Shown piece by piece: positions 1,377-8,845 of a stretch of 9,171 bases of DNA (position 1 is its first letter; each line of letters opens with the position of its first letter). Source of the stretch: a virus (taxonomy: Duplodnaviria; Heunggongvirae; Uroviricota; Caudoviricetes); the IMG/VR virus record IMGVR_UViG_2740892019_000003, one strand, 5' to 3'. Under the pieces are notes generated by a model. It did no database searches, was not told the DNA's origin, and worked only from the letters and a program-made list of their open reading frames with translations. The position numbers and the translations under genes were made by a program.

Positions 1377-2048
1377 TCAGCGACCAATCACCACAACCTG
1401 ACCACCGTCCCCTTCGTCTGCCGTGCTGATCTCCTGAGAAACCACACGTGACCCCACGCGCATTTCACCGAACAGAACGGGCAGAACATTGCCCTGGGCA
1501 ACCATGTTATCCAGTGAGGAGAAATAGGTGTTCTGCTTACCGTTATCCGTACTGGTCGCTGTGGGCGTCCGGGCTTTCGGTGCCAGCATCTGCGCCACAC
1601 CGCCAAGCACCATACTGGCACCGAGAGAAAACAGGATGCCGGTCATACCACCGGCCCCAATGGCTGCCCCCCATGCTGCAAGGGTGGCTCCGGCGGTAAA
1701 GAATGATCCGGCAATGGCGGCTGCTCCCAGGACAATCTGGAATACACCACCTGACTTGGCCCCGGCGACTCTGGGAACAATATGAATCACAGCGCCATCA
1801 GGCAGAGTCTCATGTAACTGCGCCGTTAATCCGGACGTGCTGACATCCTGCCCGGCAATCCGTACCTGATACCAGCCGTCGCTCAGTTTCTGACGAAACG
1901 CCGGGAGCTGTGTGGCCAGTGCCCGGATGGCTTCAGCCCCCGTTTTCACACGAAGGTCGATGCGGCGACCAAATCGTTGTAAATCCCCGTAAAGGCAGAT
2001 GCGCGCCATGCCCGGTGACGCCAGAGGGAGTGTGTGCGTCGCTGCCAT
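1377..2048 (-). CDS. I: Tail assembly protein I (223 aa): N-terminal ubiquitin-like beta-grasp region ending ...VAGAKSGG, then a Gly/Ala-rich hydrophobic segment
   Basis: 223-aa ORF MAATHTLPLASPGMARICLYGDLQRFGRRIDLRVKTGAEAIRALATQLPAFRQKL... recognised as lambda gpI; same length as lambda I. Overlaps the 3' end of K by 103 nt in a different frame, as in lambda. Confidence 0.95.
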   Translation of the reverse strand: MAATHTLPLASPGMARICLYGDLQRFGRRIDLRVKTGAEAIRALATQLPAFRQKLSDGWYQVRIAGQDVSTSGLTAQLHETLPDGAVIHIVPRVAGAKSGGVFQIVLGAAAIAGSFFTAGATLAAWGAAIGAGGMTGILFSLGASMVLGGVAQMLAPKARTPTATSTDNGKQNTYFSSLDNMVAQGNVLPVLFGEMRVGSRVVSQEISTADEGDGGQVVVIGR

Positions 2049-2689
2049 TTGTCGGTATACCTCTCTCGTTTGCTCAGTTGTTCAGGAATATGGTGCAGCA
2101 GCTCGCCGTCACCACAGTAAATGGCGGCATGATTCGGCACCGATGAACCAAAACAGCACAGCAGCACATCGCCCGGCTGTGCCGTTGACAACGGCACCTG
2201 ATACAGCCCCGTCGCCTCCAGATTATCCAGATAAAGATTCTGGCCGTTACGCCACCAGTCATCCCCGCGATGAAAATCCGGCATCTCAATCCCCGCCAGA
2301 TGGTAAGCATCCCGGAACAGCGTGTAACAGTCCGTCACCCCGTGCTCAAAGCGCCGCCCGGTGAGATGCGGCACACAGCGGAACTTATGAATCTCACCCC
2401 GGCAGACCAGCCACCACGGCAAATCACTCTGCACCTGCAGCCGCCGGTCGGCCTCACTCAGCCAGGGAAGACCACCGGGGTGGCTGTGAACCAGCGCCAC
2501 AATCTCACCCTGCATCTCTGCCTGCAGCCAGTCCTCCGGAGCCATCCGGAAATACTCCTCCGGCTCACCGGAAATATTCACGCAGGGAAAATATCTTTCC
2601 CCCTCCGGCGTTCTCACCACGAAGCCGCACGACTCCGCTGGCGCACATTGCCGGGCGTGCGCCAGAATCGCTGATTCTGTCTCTGTCAT
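1946..2689 (-). CDS. K: Tail assembly protein K, long form 247 aa (JAB/MPN metallopeptidase motif HSHPGG...SEAD plus C-terminal NlpC/P60-type Cys/His); the classically annotated 199-aa form would start at the internal ATG at 2545
   Basis: ORF MTETESAILAHAR...HSHPGGLPWLSEADRRLQVQSDLPWWLV...GVTDCYTLFRDAYH...NHAAIYCGDGELLHH recognised as lambda gpK. ATG at 2687-2689 lies 5 nt after the L stop with no obvious Shine-Dalgarno; the internal ATG (2543-2545) has GGAGGAG 9 nt upstream (plus 2555-2561). Confidence 0.9.
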   Translation of the reverse strand: MTETESAILAHARQCAPAESCGFVVRTPEGERYFPCVNISGEPEEYFRMAPEDWLQAEMQGEIVALVHSHPGGLPWLSEADRRLQVQSDLPWWLVCRGEIHKFRCVPHLTGRRFEHGVTDCYTLFRDAYHLAGIEMPDFHRGDDWWRNGQNLYLDNLEATGLYQVPLSTAQPGDVLLCCFGSSVPNHAAIYCGDGELLHHIPEQLSKRERYTDKWQRRTHSLWRHRAWRASAFTGIYNDLVAASTFV

Positions 2690-2694
2690 GAGAT

Positions 2695-3393
2695 TTACTG
2701 CGAAAGTTTGTTAATGGAAAGGAAGCCGCCAAAGTTATCGACGTTATTGCGGAACTTACAGCCACTCAGGCATTTGCTGCATTTATCCTTCGTGATATCG
2801 GACGTCGGCTGGTCATATTCATCCGCGACAGCCGGACCGTTATAACCGCACTCATCACCGCGATAGGTCCAGGTGCAGGTGTTGGCCAGCATGATACGCC
2901 CCGGAAAAACAGCGCCATCCGTTTCCGTCGGCGTGGCCAGTACAAAAGAGGCACTGACTGCGCTCAGTTCGCTGCACTGCTCGATGCGCCAGCGGCTGAT
3001 CACCTCCTGCTCCGGATCGGCGTCTCTGTTTCCGTTGACGAAGTTCACCGCATCCAGAAAACGGGCGTAAACCTTACGCCTGACCACCGTTCCGCCGACC
3101 AGACTCTGCAGGTCTTCCGCCATCCCGGTAACCATACCGTACAGGTTAGAAACCGTCAGCGTGGGGCGCGTACTGGTGCCTTTGCCATTCAGTTCGAAAC
3201 CACTCCCCTGAATGGGATACGCCTGATACTGTCGCCCCTGCCAGGTGACCGGCTCACCTTTTTCGTTCTGCTCATTACAGAAAAAATAACGTTCTCCACC
3301 AACCTCTGTCAGATCGATTTCCCAGAGCACCACGCTGGCCGACTGCTCCGCACGGGTGCATTCATTCAGTGTTTCCTGTCGGATATCCTGCAT
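2695..3393 (-). CDS. L: Tail tip protein L (232 aa) with C-terminal Cys cluster (C173, C182, C205, C208, C212)
   Basis: ORF MQDIRQETLNECTRAEQSASVVLWEIDLTEVGGERYFFCNEQ...KDKCSKCLSGCKFRNNVDNFGGFLSINKLSQ recognised as lambda gpL; length 232 aa. Start overlaps the M stop (TGATG on the minus strand at 3395-3391). Confidence 0.95.
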   Translation of the reverse strand: MQDIRQETLNECTRAEQSASVVLWEIDLTEVGGERYFFCNEQNEKGEPVTWQGRQYQAYPIQGSGFELNGKGTSTRPTLTVSNLYGMVTGMAEDLQSLVGGTVVRRKVYARFLDAVNFVNGNRDADPEQEVISRWRIEQCSELSAVSASFVLATPTETDGAVFPGRIMLANTCTWTYRGDECGYNGPAVADEYDQPTSDITKDKCSKCLSGCKFRNNVDNFGGFLSINKLSQ

Positions 3394-3722
3394 CAGTTCA
3401 CCACCTGTTCAAACTCTGCGCTGAACTCAACACGCAACATACTGACCCGCGACGACCATTTTGCGCAGATCACCTTTATCTGCCGCCAGTCATAAGGCGG
3501 CGTCCACAGAAAGGCTTTCCAGCCTCCGTGCTCTGCCAGAAACGATTCCAGCGCCGTGGCCTCCCAACGGGGGACAGAAATCGTCACGCTGTACGTTTTC
3601 AGGTTGGCATTCAGCCCGGCAGGCGCGCGCTGGGAGTAACCATCACCAAAGCGCACCTTCCTGACGGAAGGGGCCGAAGCCACATCCATACCGGGTTTCA
3701 CTTTCCAGCGGAAGGTTTTCAT
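3393..3722 (-). CDS. M: Tail tip protein M (109 aa)
   Basis: ORF MKTFRWKVKPGMDVASAPSVRKVRFGDGYSQRAPAGLNANLKTY... recognised as lambda gpM; 109 aa. ATGA start/stop overlap with H (3719-3722); GGAGG 6 nt upstream. Confidence 0.95.
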   Translation of the reverse strand: MKTFRWKVKPGMDVASAPSVRKVRFGDGYSQRAPAGLNANLKTYSVTISVPRWEATALESFLAEHGGWKAFLWTPPYDWRQIKVICAKWSSRVSMLRVEFSAEFEQVVN

Positions 3723-6280
3723 CGTCCACCTCCGGAGAACAGGCCACCATCACGCATCTGTGTCTGAATTTCATCACGGGCACCCTTGCGGGCCATGTCA
3801 TACACCGCCTTCAGAGCAGCCGGACCTATCTGACCGTTCGTGCCGTCGTTATTAATCACCACATGGTTATTCTGCTCAAACTTCCCGGACGCCTGCGACC
3901 GGCTGTCCGCCAGGCTGCCCGGTGTACCGACATAACCACCGGTGGCATAGCCGCGCATCAGCCGGTAGAGATTCCCCACGCCAATCCGGCTGGTTGCCTC
4001 CTTCGTGAAGACAAATTCACCACGGTGAACAATCCCCGCAGGCTCATATTTGCCGCCGGTTCCCGTAAATCCCCCGGTCGCAAAATGGAATTTCGCCGCA
4101 GCTGCCTGAATGGCGGTACCGCCTGACGCGGATGCGCCGCCACCAACAGCCCCGCCAATGGCGCTGCCGATACTCCCGACAATCCCCACCATTGCCTGCT
4201 TAAGCAGAATTTCTGTCATCATGGACAGCACGGAACGGGTAAAGCTGCGCCAGTTCTGCTCACTGCCGGTCAGCATCGCCGCCATATTCTGTGCAATACC
4301 ATCAAAGGTCTGCGTGGCTGCACTTTTAACCTGCGACATACTGTCCGTGGCGCTCTCTTCCCACTCACTCCAGCCGGACCTGAGGCCTGCCATCCAGTTC
4401 CCGCGAAGCTGGTCTTCAGCCGCCCAGGTCTTTTTCTGCTCTGACATGACGTTATTCAGCGCCAGCGGATTATCGCCATACTGTTCCTTCAGACGCTGTT
4501 CCGTGGCTTCCCTCGCTGCCTGCCGGTCAGTCAGCCCCCGGCTTTTCGCATCAATGGCGGCCCGTTTTGCCCGTTGCTGCTGTGCGAATTTATCCGCCTG
4601 CTGCGCCAGCGCATTCAGGTGCTCCTGATACGTGACCTTATCGCCAAGTGCAGCCAGCTGGCGTTTGTACTCCAGCGTCTCGTCTTTATGCGCCAGCAGG
4701 GATTTCTCCTGTGCGGACAGCTGGCGACGTTGTGCCGCCTCCTCCAGTACCGCGAACTGACTTTCTGCCTTCCACAAATCCCGGCGCTGCTGGCTGATTT
4801 TCTCATTCGCTCCGGCATGCTTCTCCAGTGTCCGGAGTTCTGCCTGAAGCGTCAGCAGGGCAGCATGAGCATTGTCTTCCTGACGATCGCCCGCAGACAC
4901 CTTCACGCCGGACTGTTTCGGCTTTTTCAGCGTCGCTTCATAATCCTTTTTCGCCGCCGCCATCAGCGTGTTGTAATCTGCCTGCAGGATTTTCCCGTCT
5001 TTCAGTGCCTTGTTCAGTTCTTCCTGACGGGCGGTATATTTCTCCAGCGGCGTCTGCAGCCGTTCGTAAGCCTTCTGCGCCTCTTCGGTATATTTCAGCC
5101 GTGACGCTTCGGTATCGCTCTGCTGCTGCGCATTTTTGTCCTGTTGACTCTGCTGTTCAGCCTTCTTTCGGGCGGCTTCAAGCGCAAGACGGGCCTTTTC
5201 ACGATCATCCCAGTAACGCGCCCGCGCTTCATCGTTAACAAAATAATCATCCTTGCGCAGATTCCAGATGTCGTCTGCTTTCTTAAACGCAGCCTCTGCC
5301 TTAATCAGCATCTCCTGAGCGGTATCAGGACGACCAATATCCAGCACCGCATCCCACATGGATTTGAATGCCCGTGCTGTCCTGTCTGCCCAGGTCTCCA
5401 GCGTACCCATGTTCTCTTTCAGGCGGCGGGTCTGGTCATCAAACCCTTTCGTTGCGGCCTCGTTCGCCGCCTGCAATGCCCCGGCTTCATCGCCGGAACG
5501 CTGCAACTGAGCAACATACGCAATCTGCTCCGCCGTCACGTTATGGAACTGGCGCGCCATCGCCGTCAGCCCCGACGTCGGGTCAGTGGTCAGCTTCCCG
5601 AAGGCTTCAGCGACCTTGTCCACCTCCACGCCGGATGCAGAGGAGAAACGCGCCACACTCTGGCTGATGGATGCAATCTGAGCCTCACCGCTTACCCCCG
5701 CCTTAACCAGTGCACTGAGTGACTCGCTGGTCTGGTTAAACGTCAGCCCTGCCGCCTGCCCGGCTCTGGACAGGACCAGCATACGATCTGCCGTCAGACC
5801 CGACTGATTACCGGAAAGGACCAGCGTTTTGTTGAAATCGGACAGGGTTGAGTTACCCTGATACCAGGCATACGCCAGCGCACCGGTCGCCACCGCCAGC
5901 GAGGTGGCCCCGACCATCGGCAGGGTGATCGCACCGGCAAGCCCCCGGAACATGGGGATCATCCCGCCGAAGGAGTCCTTAACCTGACCACCCTGTTGCA
6001 GCAGGATCAGCCACGGGCTTTGCCCGCCTGCAAGCTGCGTGGCCACGTCGGTGAACTGTGCAGGCAGCATACGCATGGCGGCTTTATACTGCCCGACGGA
6101 AATCCCCGCTTTCTGTGCAGCCAGCGCCTGTCGGCTCAGCGACTGTTCAACGACTGCCGCTGTTTTTTTCGCATCACTTTCCGTACCGGAAAAATGACGC
6201 CTGACTCTGGCCATCTGCTCGTCAAATCTGGCCGCATCCAGACTTAAATCAACGACCAGATCGCCTACCGGTTCAGCCAT
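3719..6280 (-). CDS. H: Tail tape measure protein H (853 aa)
   Basis: 853-aa ORF MAEPVGDLVVDLSLDAARFDEQMARVRRHF... with a long charged, Ala/Gln/Lys-rich helical middle and a Gly-rich hydrophobic C-terminal segment (IGGAVGGGASASGG); recognised as lambda gpH at the same length. Start ATG 6278-6280 overlaps the end of T. Confidence 0.96.
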   Translation of the reverse strand: MAEPVGDLVVDLSLDAARFDEQMARVRRHFSGTESDAKKTAAVVEQSLSRQALAAQKAGISVGQYKAAMRMLPAQFTDVATQLAGGQSPWLILLQQGGQVKDSFGGMIPMFRGLAGAITLPMVGATSLAVATGALAYAWYQGNSTLSDFNKTLVLSGNQSGLTADRMLVLSRAGQAAGLTFNQTSESLSALVKAGVSGEAQIASISQSVARFSSASGVEVDKVAEAFGKLTTDPTSGLTAMARQFHNVTAEQIAYVAQLQRSGDEAGALQAANEAATKGFDDQTRRLKENMGTLETWADRTARAFKSMWDAVLDIGRPDTAQEMLIKAEAAFKKADDIWNLRKDDYFVNDEARARYWDDREKARLALEAARKKAEQQSQQDKNAQQQSDTEASRLKYTEEAQKAYERLQTPLEKYTARQEELNKALKDGKILQADYNTLMAAAKKDYEATLKKPKQSGVKVSAGDRQEDNAHAALLTLQAELRTLEKHAGANEKISQQRRDLWKAESQFAVLEEAAQRRQLSAQEKSLLAHKDETLEYKRQLAALGDKVTYQEHLNALAQQADKFAQQQRAKRAAIDAKSRGLTDRQAAREATEQRLKEQYGDNPLALNNVMSEQKKTWAAEDQLRGNWMAGLRSGWSEWEESATDSMSQVKSAATQTFDGIAQNMAAMLTGSEQNWRSFTRSVLSMMTEILLKQAMVGIVGSIGSAIGGAVGGGASASGGTAIQAAAAKFHFATGGFTGTGGKYEPAGIVHRGEFVFTKEATSRIGVGNLYRLMRGYATGGYVGTPGSLADSRSQASGKFEQNNHVVINNDGTNGQIGPAALKAVYDMARKGARDEIQTQMRDGGLFSGGGR

Positions 6281-7111
6281 ACCGGACTCCTCCTGCGATC
6301 CCTTCTGATACTGTCATCAGCATTACGTCATCCTCCGTCATGCCCGCCATATCCGGGGAAGCGGGGATAACTTCATTTCCGTCCGGGTCAAAGCGGACGC
6401 CTCCGGTAAGCCCTGCCGCTTTCTGCATCAGCACATCATCTTCAGGCTCTTCGTCATCCTCACGCCGGTTCAGCAAACTGAAATCCAGCGGATGCATATC
6501 CGGATCGCTGAAAAACAGGCTGAGCACAGTGTACGTCAGCCCGGAAAAGTGCATATCCAGCAGAACATCATGAAAATAATGGGTACTGTAAAAGCGGTGC
6601 CAGTCGGCATACTCCGTGGATGACATCCCGGCAAGCATGGCGCGCCAGTCAGGTCGCCCCATCTCTCGCGCCAGTTTCAGGGCAAAACTCAGCTCACCGT
6701 CGAACACTTTCCCGCAGAAACAGGCTCTGCAGGCCCGGCGTCCTCTGTCTGGTCAGGGGCATCATTCACCACAAACTCATACATTCCGGACAGCCGGTAC
6801 ACCACGTTTTCAGCATGAGAAATTGCCTCTGTAGGCCAGGTGGTAAGCACTTCCTGCTCAATCTGTTTAACGGCTTCATTCATGGACGGCATCTGCGTCT
6901 TCTTCGGATGGTTATGCCACAGGGACATCGCCACCACAAAAGCGCCGGTTCTGATGGCGTCTTCCACAGTAAACTTCCGGTTGCTGTCTGACTCCGCCTG
7001 TTCTGCCTGCCGTTTCATCAGGGCGAGATGCTCAATACGCTGTAGGGCTGACAGTTCAGAAAGCGTGACGGTCACGCCGTTATGTTCAAATGATTCGGTT
7101 TTCAGGAACAT
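6273..7111 (-). CDS. GT: Tail assembly chaperone GT, made by a programmed -1 ribosomal frameshift joining the G frame to the T frame at 6707-6713
   Basis: G frame (6689-7111) and T frame (stop at 6273-6275, open upstream past the slip site) overlap. Slippery heptamer G GGA AAG sits in the G zero frame (encoding Gly-Lys of ...SAGKCSTVS); after a -1 slip the reading continues GGG AAA GTG TTC GAC GGT GAG = G K V F D G E..., i.e. the track ORF 'MFDGELSF...' with its GTG read as Val. Confidence 0.85.
6287..6294 (-). promoter_or_regulatory. Shine-Dalgarno for H (AGGAGGAG), embedded in the 3' end of the T coding frame
   Basis: Plus 6287-6294 ctcctcct = AGGAGGAG on the minus strand, 6 nt upstream of the H ATG. 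Confidence 0.7.
6689..7111 (-). CDS. G: Tail assembly chaperone G (140 aa)
   Basis: ORF MFLKTESFEHNGVTVTLSELSALQRIEHLALMKRQAEQAESDSNRKF... recognised as lambda gpG; 140 aa. GGAGAG 6 nt upstream of the ATG (plus 7118-7123). Confidence 0.95.
   Translation of the reverse strand: MFLKTESFEHNGVTVTLSELSALQRIEHLALMKRQAEQAESDSNRKFTVEDAIRTGAFVVAMSLWHNHPKKTQMPSMNEAVKQIEQEVLTTWPTEAISHAENVVYRLSGMYEFVVNDAPDQTEDAGPAEPVSAGKCSTVS
6707..6713 (-). other. -1 programmed ribosomal frameshift slippery heptamer GGGAAAG (X XXY YYZ type)
   Basis: Plus 6707-6713 ctttccc = GGGAAAG on the minus strand. Lies 6 codons before the G stop, in the correct phase (G GGA AAG in the G frame). Confidence 0.85.
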
Positions 7112-7126
7112 CGCTGACTCTCCGGA

Positions 7127-7867
7127 TTAGCTGTCGGTGACGGTGATTTCTGCAACGGCAGCAAACTCACCATTACCGGATACGACCGGAATGTTGACCT
7201 TGCCTGCAGCAACGCCGTTCACGGTGATGGTCATACCACTGACCGACACGGTGGCTTTTGTTTTATCCGCAGACACCGCACGGAAGCTCTTGTCGGTTGC
7301 GCCTTCCGGCTGGAATGCCACGGTCAGCGTGGTGCTCTGCCCTTTCACTACGGAAGCACTGGCTGGCGTTACCGTCATGCCGGTGGCCGCCGTCACCGTG
7401 CTGCGATCTTCTGCCATCGACGGGCGTCCCACATTGGTGACCTTCACCGTGCGGGTAATCACTTCCTTCGCCGTCACCGCCTTACCGATACTGCTGACCC
7501 AGCCACGGAACACATCGACCGTGCCGTTCGGGAAGCGGATTTTATAGGCACGGGTATCACCTTCATTAAACCACGCCAGCAGCGCCTGCTGCCCCTGCTC
7601 TCCGGGCATCCACGCCAGCGTGAAGCTGGTATCTCCGGCTGACTTCTGCCCCTGTCCGGTCGCGGTCCAGTCCGCATCTTCATCATCGAGATAACTGTCG
7701 TCATAGGACTCAGCGGTCAGTTCGCCGGGCGTCAGGTCTTTAACTTTAGCCAGACGCGACCAGTCAACGTCTGAAAGCGGGTTCGCATAAGGGTCACCGT
7801 TCCCCTTATAAACCCACAGTGTGGTCCCGGCACCTTTCACCGGCATTGTAGGATTTGGTACAGGCAT
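7127..7867 (-). CDS. V: Major tail tube protein V (246 aa) with C-terminal Ig-like (Big_2-type) domain
   Basis: Track ORF 7127-7897 begins at an upstream ATG inside U. The start matching lambda gpV ([22 protein letters not shown]...) is the ATG at 7865-7867, preceded by GAGGA (plus 7872-7876) and giving 246 aa. C-terminal ~90 aa are Thr/Val/Ser-rich beta-strand-like sequence ([33 protein letters not shown]...). Confidence 0.93.
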
Positions 7868-7874
7868 ATCGTCC

Positions 7875-8270
7875 TCACATTTCATAGGTAATGACATAAG
7901 TCAGATCGGCTGAACTCCACAGGCCCGCATCATCGTCGCGCCGGTAGTCATAGCCACTGGCCACCATACTGGTGATCAAATCTGACAGTGCCGGGATATC
8001 GCTCATCACCGGATAAATCCGGGACTCCATCCACGAATCCAGCTCTGAATCCGGCACCTGAGCAGGCAGGAAAACTTCAATATGCAGCTCCGCCTGCCAG
8101 GTATCGCTGTCCAGCTCTTCGCCCGTGTATTCAGCGCCGGTGAGATAAACGGCAATTGCCGGAAAATCCGCCTCATCAAAAACAGCGGGGCGACCATCAA
8201 AAAGCGTCGCCCCGGTGTCATGCTTCTCCAGTGCATCCAGTACGGCTGCACGGAGTTCAGTATGTTTCAT
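7875..8270 (-). CDS. U: Tail terminator protein U (131 aa)
   Basis: [56 protein letters not shown]... recognised as lambda gpU; 131 aa. 4-nt overlap with the Z stop (8267-8270). Confidence 0.95.
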
Positions 8271-8845
8271 CGCTTTATTACCATTCTCAGTTGATGCTGC
8301 AGCGCATAGCCCAGCTCTTTCGGAAGACGTTCACGCCGTATCCGTTCAATATTCTGTTTAAACGCCGTGGTCAGCGGCACCGCCATCGGGATTTTCACCA
8401 CATCAATGGGGTAACGGTTTTTTCCGGCCACACGCTGCATAACATGCCACCGGCCATTTTTCAGTTGCTGAATAAACGCGCCGGGAATACGACGGTTACC
8501 CACCACAAGCACGCTGCCGCCACCTTTCAGGGATGAACGCTGCCCCTTTTTACGACGCCTGCGGCGGGACAGGACAACCCGCGCATTACCCAGCTTGATT
8601 ACGGGCAAATCCCCCCGGTTAACTTTGATTCTGGCCTGCGGATTTTTGACCGTGGCCCTTTTCAGCCTGGCCCTTTCCTTTACCAGTTTCCGGCGTACCT
8701 TTGTCTCACGGGCAACCTGTGACGCAGACTGCGATATCGCGGATGAAGCAACGCGGTTAATGGCCATTGCGGCGGCACCGGGCACCGCCGTTCTGCTGAT
8801 ACGGCTGAGGTTTTCAACGGCCTGCTCAAGACCTTTTATGGCCAT
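8267..8845 (-). CDS. Z: Tail completion protein Z (192 aa)
   Basis: ORF MAIKGLEQAVENLSRISRTAVPGAAAMAINRVASSAISQSASQVARETKVRRKL... recognised as lambda gpZ; 192 aa. AGGGGG 4 nt upstream of the ATG (plus 8850-8855). Confidence 0.95.
   Translation of the reverse strand: MAIKGLEQAVENLSRISRTAVPGAAAMAINRVASSAISQSASQVARETKVRRKLVKERARLKRATVKNPQARIKVNRGDLPVIKLGNARVVLSRRRRRKKGQRSSLKGGGSVLVVGNRRIPGAFIQQLKNGRWHVMQRVAGKNRYPIDVVKIPMAVPLTTAFKQNIERIRRERLPKELGYALQHQLRMVIKR

Follow-up and report, generated by a model that had tools for sequence, protein, structure and literature searches.

The window, by which we mean the whole stretch of 9,171 nucleotides analyzed here (IMG/VR virus record IMGVR_UViG_2740892019_000003), almost certainly carries the lambda-type G/T programmed -1 ribosomal frameshift site of a lambda-like Escherichia coli prophage (Lambdavirus-type). 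The slippery heptamer, GGGAAAG, is located within gene G at 6713..6707 of the minus strand. No feature of the sequence speaks against this reading. The site is already known, being the classical lambda G/GT recoding, and it adds no new biology. The slip itself, its frequency and the functions of the proteins involved would be those described in the lambda literature, from which they are carried over here by way of the identity of the site.

The tail module and its G-T region

Every long ORF in the window is encoded on the minus strand, and together they make up a lambda-type tail module with the order Z-U-V-G-T-H-M-L-K-I-J. The first genes are Z (8845..8267, PF06763), U (8270..7875, PF06141) and the tail-tube gene V (7867..7127, 246 aa, PF16461 plus Big_2). 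They are followed by G, which codes for the tail assembly chaperone gpG (7111..6689, 140 aa, PF06894 with E=3e-60, ending at TGA 6691..6689), and by the T frame, the C-terminal part of gpGT (6707..6273, 144 codons, PF06223 with E=3e-14). Next come the tape measure protein gene H (6280..3719, 853 aa, PF06791 plus PF09718), M (3722..3393, PF05939), L (3393..2695, PF05100), K (2689..1946, 247 aa, JAB/MPN plus NlpC/P60), I (2048..1377, PF06805) and J, which extends beyond the low-coordinate end of the window. G and the T frame are thus found between the tail-tube and tape-measure genes (V-G-T-H). The start of G is preceded by a Shine-Dalgarno (SD)-like GGAG 7 nt before the ATG, and that of H by a strong SD, AGGAGG, also 7 nt before the ATG.

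Two gene starts elsewhere in the module deserve a comment. The mechanical ORF of V begins at ATG 7897 (256 aa) and overlaps U; this start is an artefact, since a GAGGA Shine-Dalgarno precedes the ATG at 7867, which gives 246 aa, and the related records annotate the corresponding 741-nt CDS. The longest ORF of I (from 2048, 223 aa) would share 103 nt with K; the homologue in the PGAP annotation begins at the equivalent of 1949 (190 aa), and public annotation is ambiguous on the start of this gene.

The relationship with lambda is very close throughout the G-T region. Both NCBIfam equivalogs match one conceptual fused polypeptide, TIGR01674 (phage_lambda_G) at residues 1-136 of the fusion (214 bits versus a cut-off of 74) and TIGR01715 (phage_lam_T) at residues 140-245 (182 bits versus a cut-off of 77). 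At the DNA level, identity over the 1 kb of the G-T region amounts to 99.6% with Escherichia phage PhiR63_1 and to 96.8-97.6% with the lambda-group phages and phage 21. In a four-way alignment, the sequence matches lambda NC_001416 exactly over the heptamer and ~40 nt on either side of it. Searching the PDB with the sequence of the 279-aa fusion did not return any relative.

Of 5426 complete E. coli genomes, 4568 contain related modules, frequently several per genome, and hence the window is most likely chromosomal prophage DNA. Many such prophages are cryptic, and one relative, in Shigella flexneri, holds a degraded copy. The G-T site might then be a relic within a defective prophage, in which the frameshift has lost its importance or the module stays silent. 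We give this reading hardly any credence: the ten tail ORFs of the window are all full length with full-coverage family matches, and there is no damage to G, the slip site or T, which hardly differ from those of the plaque-forming PhiR63_1. It is, moreover, a reading of the activity of the element and not of its nature. The site confirms that the window represents an intact lambda-type tail module.

The slip site and the status of T

The heptamer begins at offset 398 of G and, since 398 mod 3 = 2, it is phased as G_GGA_AAG, with GGA and AAG coding for Gly134 and Lys135. After the AAG there are five sense codons in G (C-S-T-V-S) and then the TGA, the minus strand reading ...GTT TCT GCG GGA AAG TGT TCG ACG GTG AGC TGA. 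When the G at 6707 is used twice, the -1 reading becomes GGG AAA GTG TTC GAC GGT GAG CTG AGT TTT. The -1 frame is open from 6752 (its upstream stop is 6755..6753) and continues for 144 codons past the slip to TGA 6275..6273, where it overlaps the H start at ATG 6280..6278 (ATGGCTGA). The initial annotation had placed GGGAAAG in the zero frame of G six codons before the stop, followed by a -1 frame open for 144 more codons up to the H start; the phase, the position of AAG as the sixth-last codon and the overlap with H bear this out. The plus-strand interval assigned to the site, 6689-6720, also brackets the minus-strand features correctly.

The conceptual fusion CDS is join(7111..6707, 6707..6273) on the minus strand. 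It codes for a GT protein of 279 aa and 31,250 Da, compared with 140 aa and 15,580 Da for gpG. The predicted junction is ...SAGK/VFDGELSF, and the peptide across it reads ...PVSAGKVFDGELSF... A GT product of ~31 kDa had been proposed beforehand, and the conceptual translation agrees with it in mass and has an identical junction. The slip-site mutant proposed along with it (GGGAAAG to GGCAAGG) needs a correction, as it would alter gpG, replacing Gly-Lys by Ala-Arg. A silent alternative in this gene is GCG GGA AAG to GCC GGC AAG, which keeps Ala-Gly-Lys.

The heptamer as a bare word is not enriched, with two copies of GGGAAAG observed in the window versus 1.37 expected, a count that is not above chance. 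What stands out is the arrangement. Among the nine genes scanned (2382 codons) there are only three in-phase X_XXY_YYZ heptamers, and the -1 ORF that follows them is 144 codons long in G, 4 in Z and 1 in L. The 144 codons after the G heptamer also carry a recognised protein domain (PF06223). The arrangement at the G heptamer is far from chance.

Two other places in the module resemble shift sites. The second copy of GGGAAAG (2601..2595, minus strand) is inside K and begins at codon position 2; we rejected it as a shift site because it is out of phase, and it is a chance occurrence for the same reason. At the Z/U junction (8273-8279, minus strand) there is an in-phase A_AAG (A_ATA_AAG), separated from the Z stop by a single sense codon (CGA). 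U is read in the -1 frame at this point, its ATG at 8270 sharing an ATGA with the Z stop, and a hypothetical -1 slip would yield a Z-Ala-U fusion. Considering that the scanned genes contain 11 in-phase A_AAG, this one is probably there by chance.

The T frame could also be viewed as a gene of its own, translated from GTG 6707 or from a downstream ATG into a free gpT, with the heptamer being incidental. This is how a mechanical ORF call presents it (a GTG-initiated ORF of 144 aa), and in RefSeq lambda (NC_001416, L001) and in the PGAP annotation of E. coli NZ_CP117020 (L014) T is likewise a stand-alone CDS, without a joined GT product. However, upstream of 6707 the T frame is devoid of ATG, GTG and TTG codons as far back as its stop at 6755..6753. 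The only SD-like element at GTG 6707 is a GGGA 1 nt away (-4.3 kcal/mol), a nonfunctional spacing, whereas values of -6.6 to -10.8 kcal/mol, at spacings of 3-7 nt, were obtained for the starts of Z, G, H and M. The codon equivalent to GTG 6707 is GTC in the Stx2a phages and E. albertii, GTT in one further relative (L043), GCA in the Stx1 type and GCC in N15, phi80 and most prophages. None of these is an initiation codon, yet conservation of the T-frame protein sets in right at this codon, with the start V/A-F/L-x-G/S-E-L-x-F-x-L-x-LARE-x-GRPDWRAMLAGM. The ATGs located downstream (6662, 6638 and 6626) lack SDs, and their use would remove the most conserved residues of T.

Independent initiation of T thus seems very unlikely, judging from the lack of a usable start or SD and from the non-start codons of the relatives. 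The initial annotation had argued that T is not the separate GTG-initiated ORF that it appears to be, a view that would fall with a functional ribosome-binding site and start for T; we looked for these and found none in the T frame. In lambda, the T sequence is made solely as part of gpGT (PMC5009743).

T should therefore be annotated as the 3' part of the joined GT CDS described above and not as a free GTG-initiated gene. The -1 frameshift and the joined GT CDS are annotated at the same site in the curated records of phage 21, phi80, N15 and LLS, while the error of a separate T persists in the RefSeq lambda and PGAP E. coli records. In the automatically annotated PhiR12_2, mEp043 and CP-1639, T begins at an internal ATG.

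Conservation of the site and of the RNA that follows it

We collected 96 close loci (80 from IMG/VR and 16 genome contigs), of which 95 contain the junction. GGGAAAG is kept in all 95, with a T frame of 144 codons. The relatives from the IMG/VR scan are 96-99% identical and serve for conservation counts but not for covariation. A divergent set of 25 loci was obtained from a species-level genome scan of other Enterobacterales (Trabulsiella, Kluyvera, Enterobacter, Citrobacter, Yokenella, Pluralibacter, Pantoea and Proteus), with 36-78% identity in T. An in-phase N_NNA_AAG, as GGGAAAG, GGAAAAG or GGTAAAG, is found at the homologous position in 24 of these 25. The sole divergent locus without a slip site is the one from Shigella flexneri (L133, CP182557), in which the T-homologous frame is open for just 28 codons with no G ORF upstream, i.e., a degraded prophage remnant.

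Phage records gave the same result. A shift-prone heptamer is present at the same position and in the same phase in 13 of 13 records (70-99% DNA identity): GGGAAAG in the lambda group and the Stx2a phages, AAAAAAG in Stx1 and CP-1639, and GGAAAAG in N15, phi80, mEp043, LLS and Kp4865-4. The -1 ORF is 113-152 codons long across them, and it runs up to or into the tape-measure start in every record except CP-1639, where a gap of 43 nt separates it from the annotated H start. Taking the close, divergent and phage loci together, the universally conserved core is the A-site A_AAG. The site had been described as the conserved chaperone recoding arrangement of long-tailed phages, and the V-G-T-H order, the family matches and the retention of the site in relatives all support that description.

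The genome scan also recovered lambda-identical G-T sequences (96-98% identity to the window) in short contigs, many of them with ~1x coverage (L096-L110, L121, L129 and L134), from assemblies of organisms with no relation to the hosts, such as Neobacillus, Kitasatospora, Shewanella, Pseudomonas, Chromatium and Enterococcus. These are almost certainly contamination with lambda control DNA.

The A6 present at the site in Stx1 and CP-1639 (AAAAAAG) brings up another origin for the GT fusion, slippage of the RNA polymerase stuttering on the A run instead of a shift by the ribosome, which is a known alternative route to such fusions (PMC5009743). However, the run is just A3 here and A3-A4 in most relatives, far short of the lengths that support polymerase slippage. 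The in-phase conservation of A_AAG is a ribosomal (tRNA-Lys) signature, and slippage by the polymerase would not explain why the phase is kept. In addition, the level of GT in lambda depends on the thiolation of U34 of tRNA-Lys (PMC3296357). Transcriptional slippage is accordingly an exceedingly improbable source of the fusion, and we retain the ribosomal frameshift.

Stimulatory elements were searched for around the heptamer. The Rfam scan at gathering thresholds gave no family in the whole window, and no upstream SD-like stimulator of the dnaX type was found in the 20 nt before the heptamer. The minimum free energy (MFE) fold of the 120 nt after it is not more stable than that of shuffled sequences (z = -0.91). 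The absence of significant structure fits a low-efficiency site.

A set of candidate nested RNA helices was nevertheless delineated at 6699..6629 (minus strand) from the MFE fold, Alifold and pair counts. It would consist of an 8-bp outer helix (6699-6692/6636-6629), starting 7 nt 3' of the heptamer, that encloses a hairpin (6673-6658/6653-6638) with an invariant UGGCGCG...CGCGCCA. The candidate pairs are standard in 95.5% of the cells in 12 diverse phages versus 22-42% in slid controls, and in 87% across 32 distinct sequences. Nearly all of them are invariant, the single well-populated covarying pair being G-C/A-U at columns 46:114, which probably goes back to one event. Among the most divergent relatives (Pantoea and Proteus), the pairs break instead of being compensated. 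At the codon level, 7 of the 12 degenerate codons for invariant residues within T codons 5-23 use one codon in all 12 sequences, versus 3 of 27 further downstream in T. Phylogenetic non-independence together with mosaic recombination could explain this synonymous fixation.

We do not claim a downstream stimulator, given the z-score, the reliance of the pairing on invariant sequence and its breakage in divergent relatives. That the ~70 nt after the slip site (6699-6629) form a conserved nested fold tuning the G:GT ratio is, in our opinion, improbable. What hints at it are the fixed synonymous positions of T codons 5-23 and the start of the helix at a spacing of 7 nt, which is the canonical one. 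If true, it would be a stimulator or attenuator so far unrecognised for lambda-type G-T sites, as far as we have checked.

Proposed mechanism and comparison with known systems

The lambda G/GT frameshift was reportedly described by Levin, Hendrix and Casjens in 1993 and by Xu, Hendrix and Duda in 2004, 2013 and 2014. It ranks among the founding examples of programmed recoding in DNA phages and sets the chaperone stoichiometry for a tail of the correct length. As related in the accounts that cite Levin et al. 1993, the -1 frameshift at G_GGA_AAG of lambda is experimentally established, at ~4%; the zero frame is kept by ~96% of ribosomes, and the gpG:gpGT ratio is ~30:1 (PMC5009743, PMC3296357, PMC7618472). 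The same sources state that this ratio is critical in tail assembly, that neither gpG nor gpGT is present in the virion, that gpG and the G part of gpGT bind gpH, and that the T part binds gpV and nucleates the polymerisation of the tube (PMC5009743, PMC3296357, PMC7618472).

G_GGA_AAG is highly shift-prone in E. coli (PMC5009743, PMC3296357, PMC7618472), where the slip of tRNA-Lys on A_AAG is especially efficient (PMC5009743). The level of GT responds to the thiolation of tRNA-Lys U34 (PMC3296357), and hypomodification of U34 leads to a higher shift frequency and a lower phage yield (PMC5009743, PMC3296357, PMC7618472). The main text of one of these papers (PMC3296357) prints the slippery sequence as GGGTTTG (GGT-TTG / GGG-TTT), whereas its own Table 1 and the genome have GGGAAAG; the former is a misprint.

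By analogy, most ribosomes translating G in the window would read G_GGA_AAG in frame and stop five codons later, releasing gpG (140 aa). A small fraction (~4% in lambda) would slip back one nucleotide, with tRNA-Gly re-pairing from GGA to GGG and tRNA-Lys (anticodon mnm5s2UUU) from AAG to AAA; from the sequence of the heptamer, both tRNAs can re-pair in the -1 frame. The shifted ribosomes would go on in the T frame to produce gpGT (279 aa, 31 kDa). The common G part of both proteins would bind the tape-measure protein gpH, and the T part would recruit the tail-tube protein gpV. The ~30:1 ratio of G to GT, set by the slip frequency, would be required for the correct assembly of the tail, and neither protein would be part of the virion.

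The counterpart in lambda itself has the same genes in the same order (V-G-T-H), the same lengths (140 aa for G, 144 codons for T and 853 aa for H), the same heptamer (G_GGA_AAG), the same distance from the heptamer to the G stop and the same overlap of the T stop with the H start, in DNA that is ~97% identical. The differences are few substitutions in G (e.g., Q70K, N117D and E120D) and in T (e.g., A/D, A/T, G/D, V/M and D/G), none of them at the recoding site. In N15, phi80, mEp043, LLS and many prophages (G_GAA_AAG), as well as in the Stx1-type phages (A_AAA_AAG), G and T are homologous to those of the window, and the site has the same position and phase. The N terminus of T is conserved from the first codon past the slip site in these relatives. 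What differs is the P-site codon (GAA, AAA or GTA versus GGA here), and several relatives have a shorter T (113-117 codons).

Outside phages, the E. coli dnaX gene (tau/gamma, A_AAA_AAG) relies on an SD-like element before the heptamer and a strong hairpin after it and shifts with a frequency of ~50% or more, giving a truncated product. The site in the window, in contrast, is without an upstream SD-like stimulator or significant structure, its efficiency would be low, and its product would be an extension. What both would have in common is the slip of the single tRNA-Lys (mnm5s2UUU) of E. coli from AAG to AAA on a heptamer (PMC5009743).

Among unrelated long-tailed phages, TP901-1 (gpG/gpT, GGGAAAG) and P2 (E/E+E') also have a pair of ORFs that overlap each other, placed between the genes for the tail tube and the tape measure, and -1 slippage gives rise in them to a minor extended chaperone (PMC4493119, PMC5009743). 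They differ in that no detectable sequence homology is expected with them, whereas the window belongs to the lambda family proper. The placement of the ORFs, the in-phase heptamer, a T without a start of its own, the homology of G and T to lambda gpG and gpT, and a slip site conserved despite the divergence of its flanks are all found here, as in the lambda-type G/GT system.
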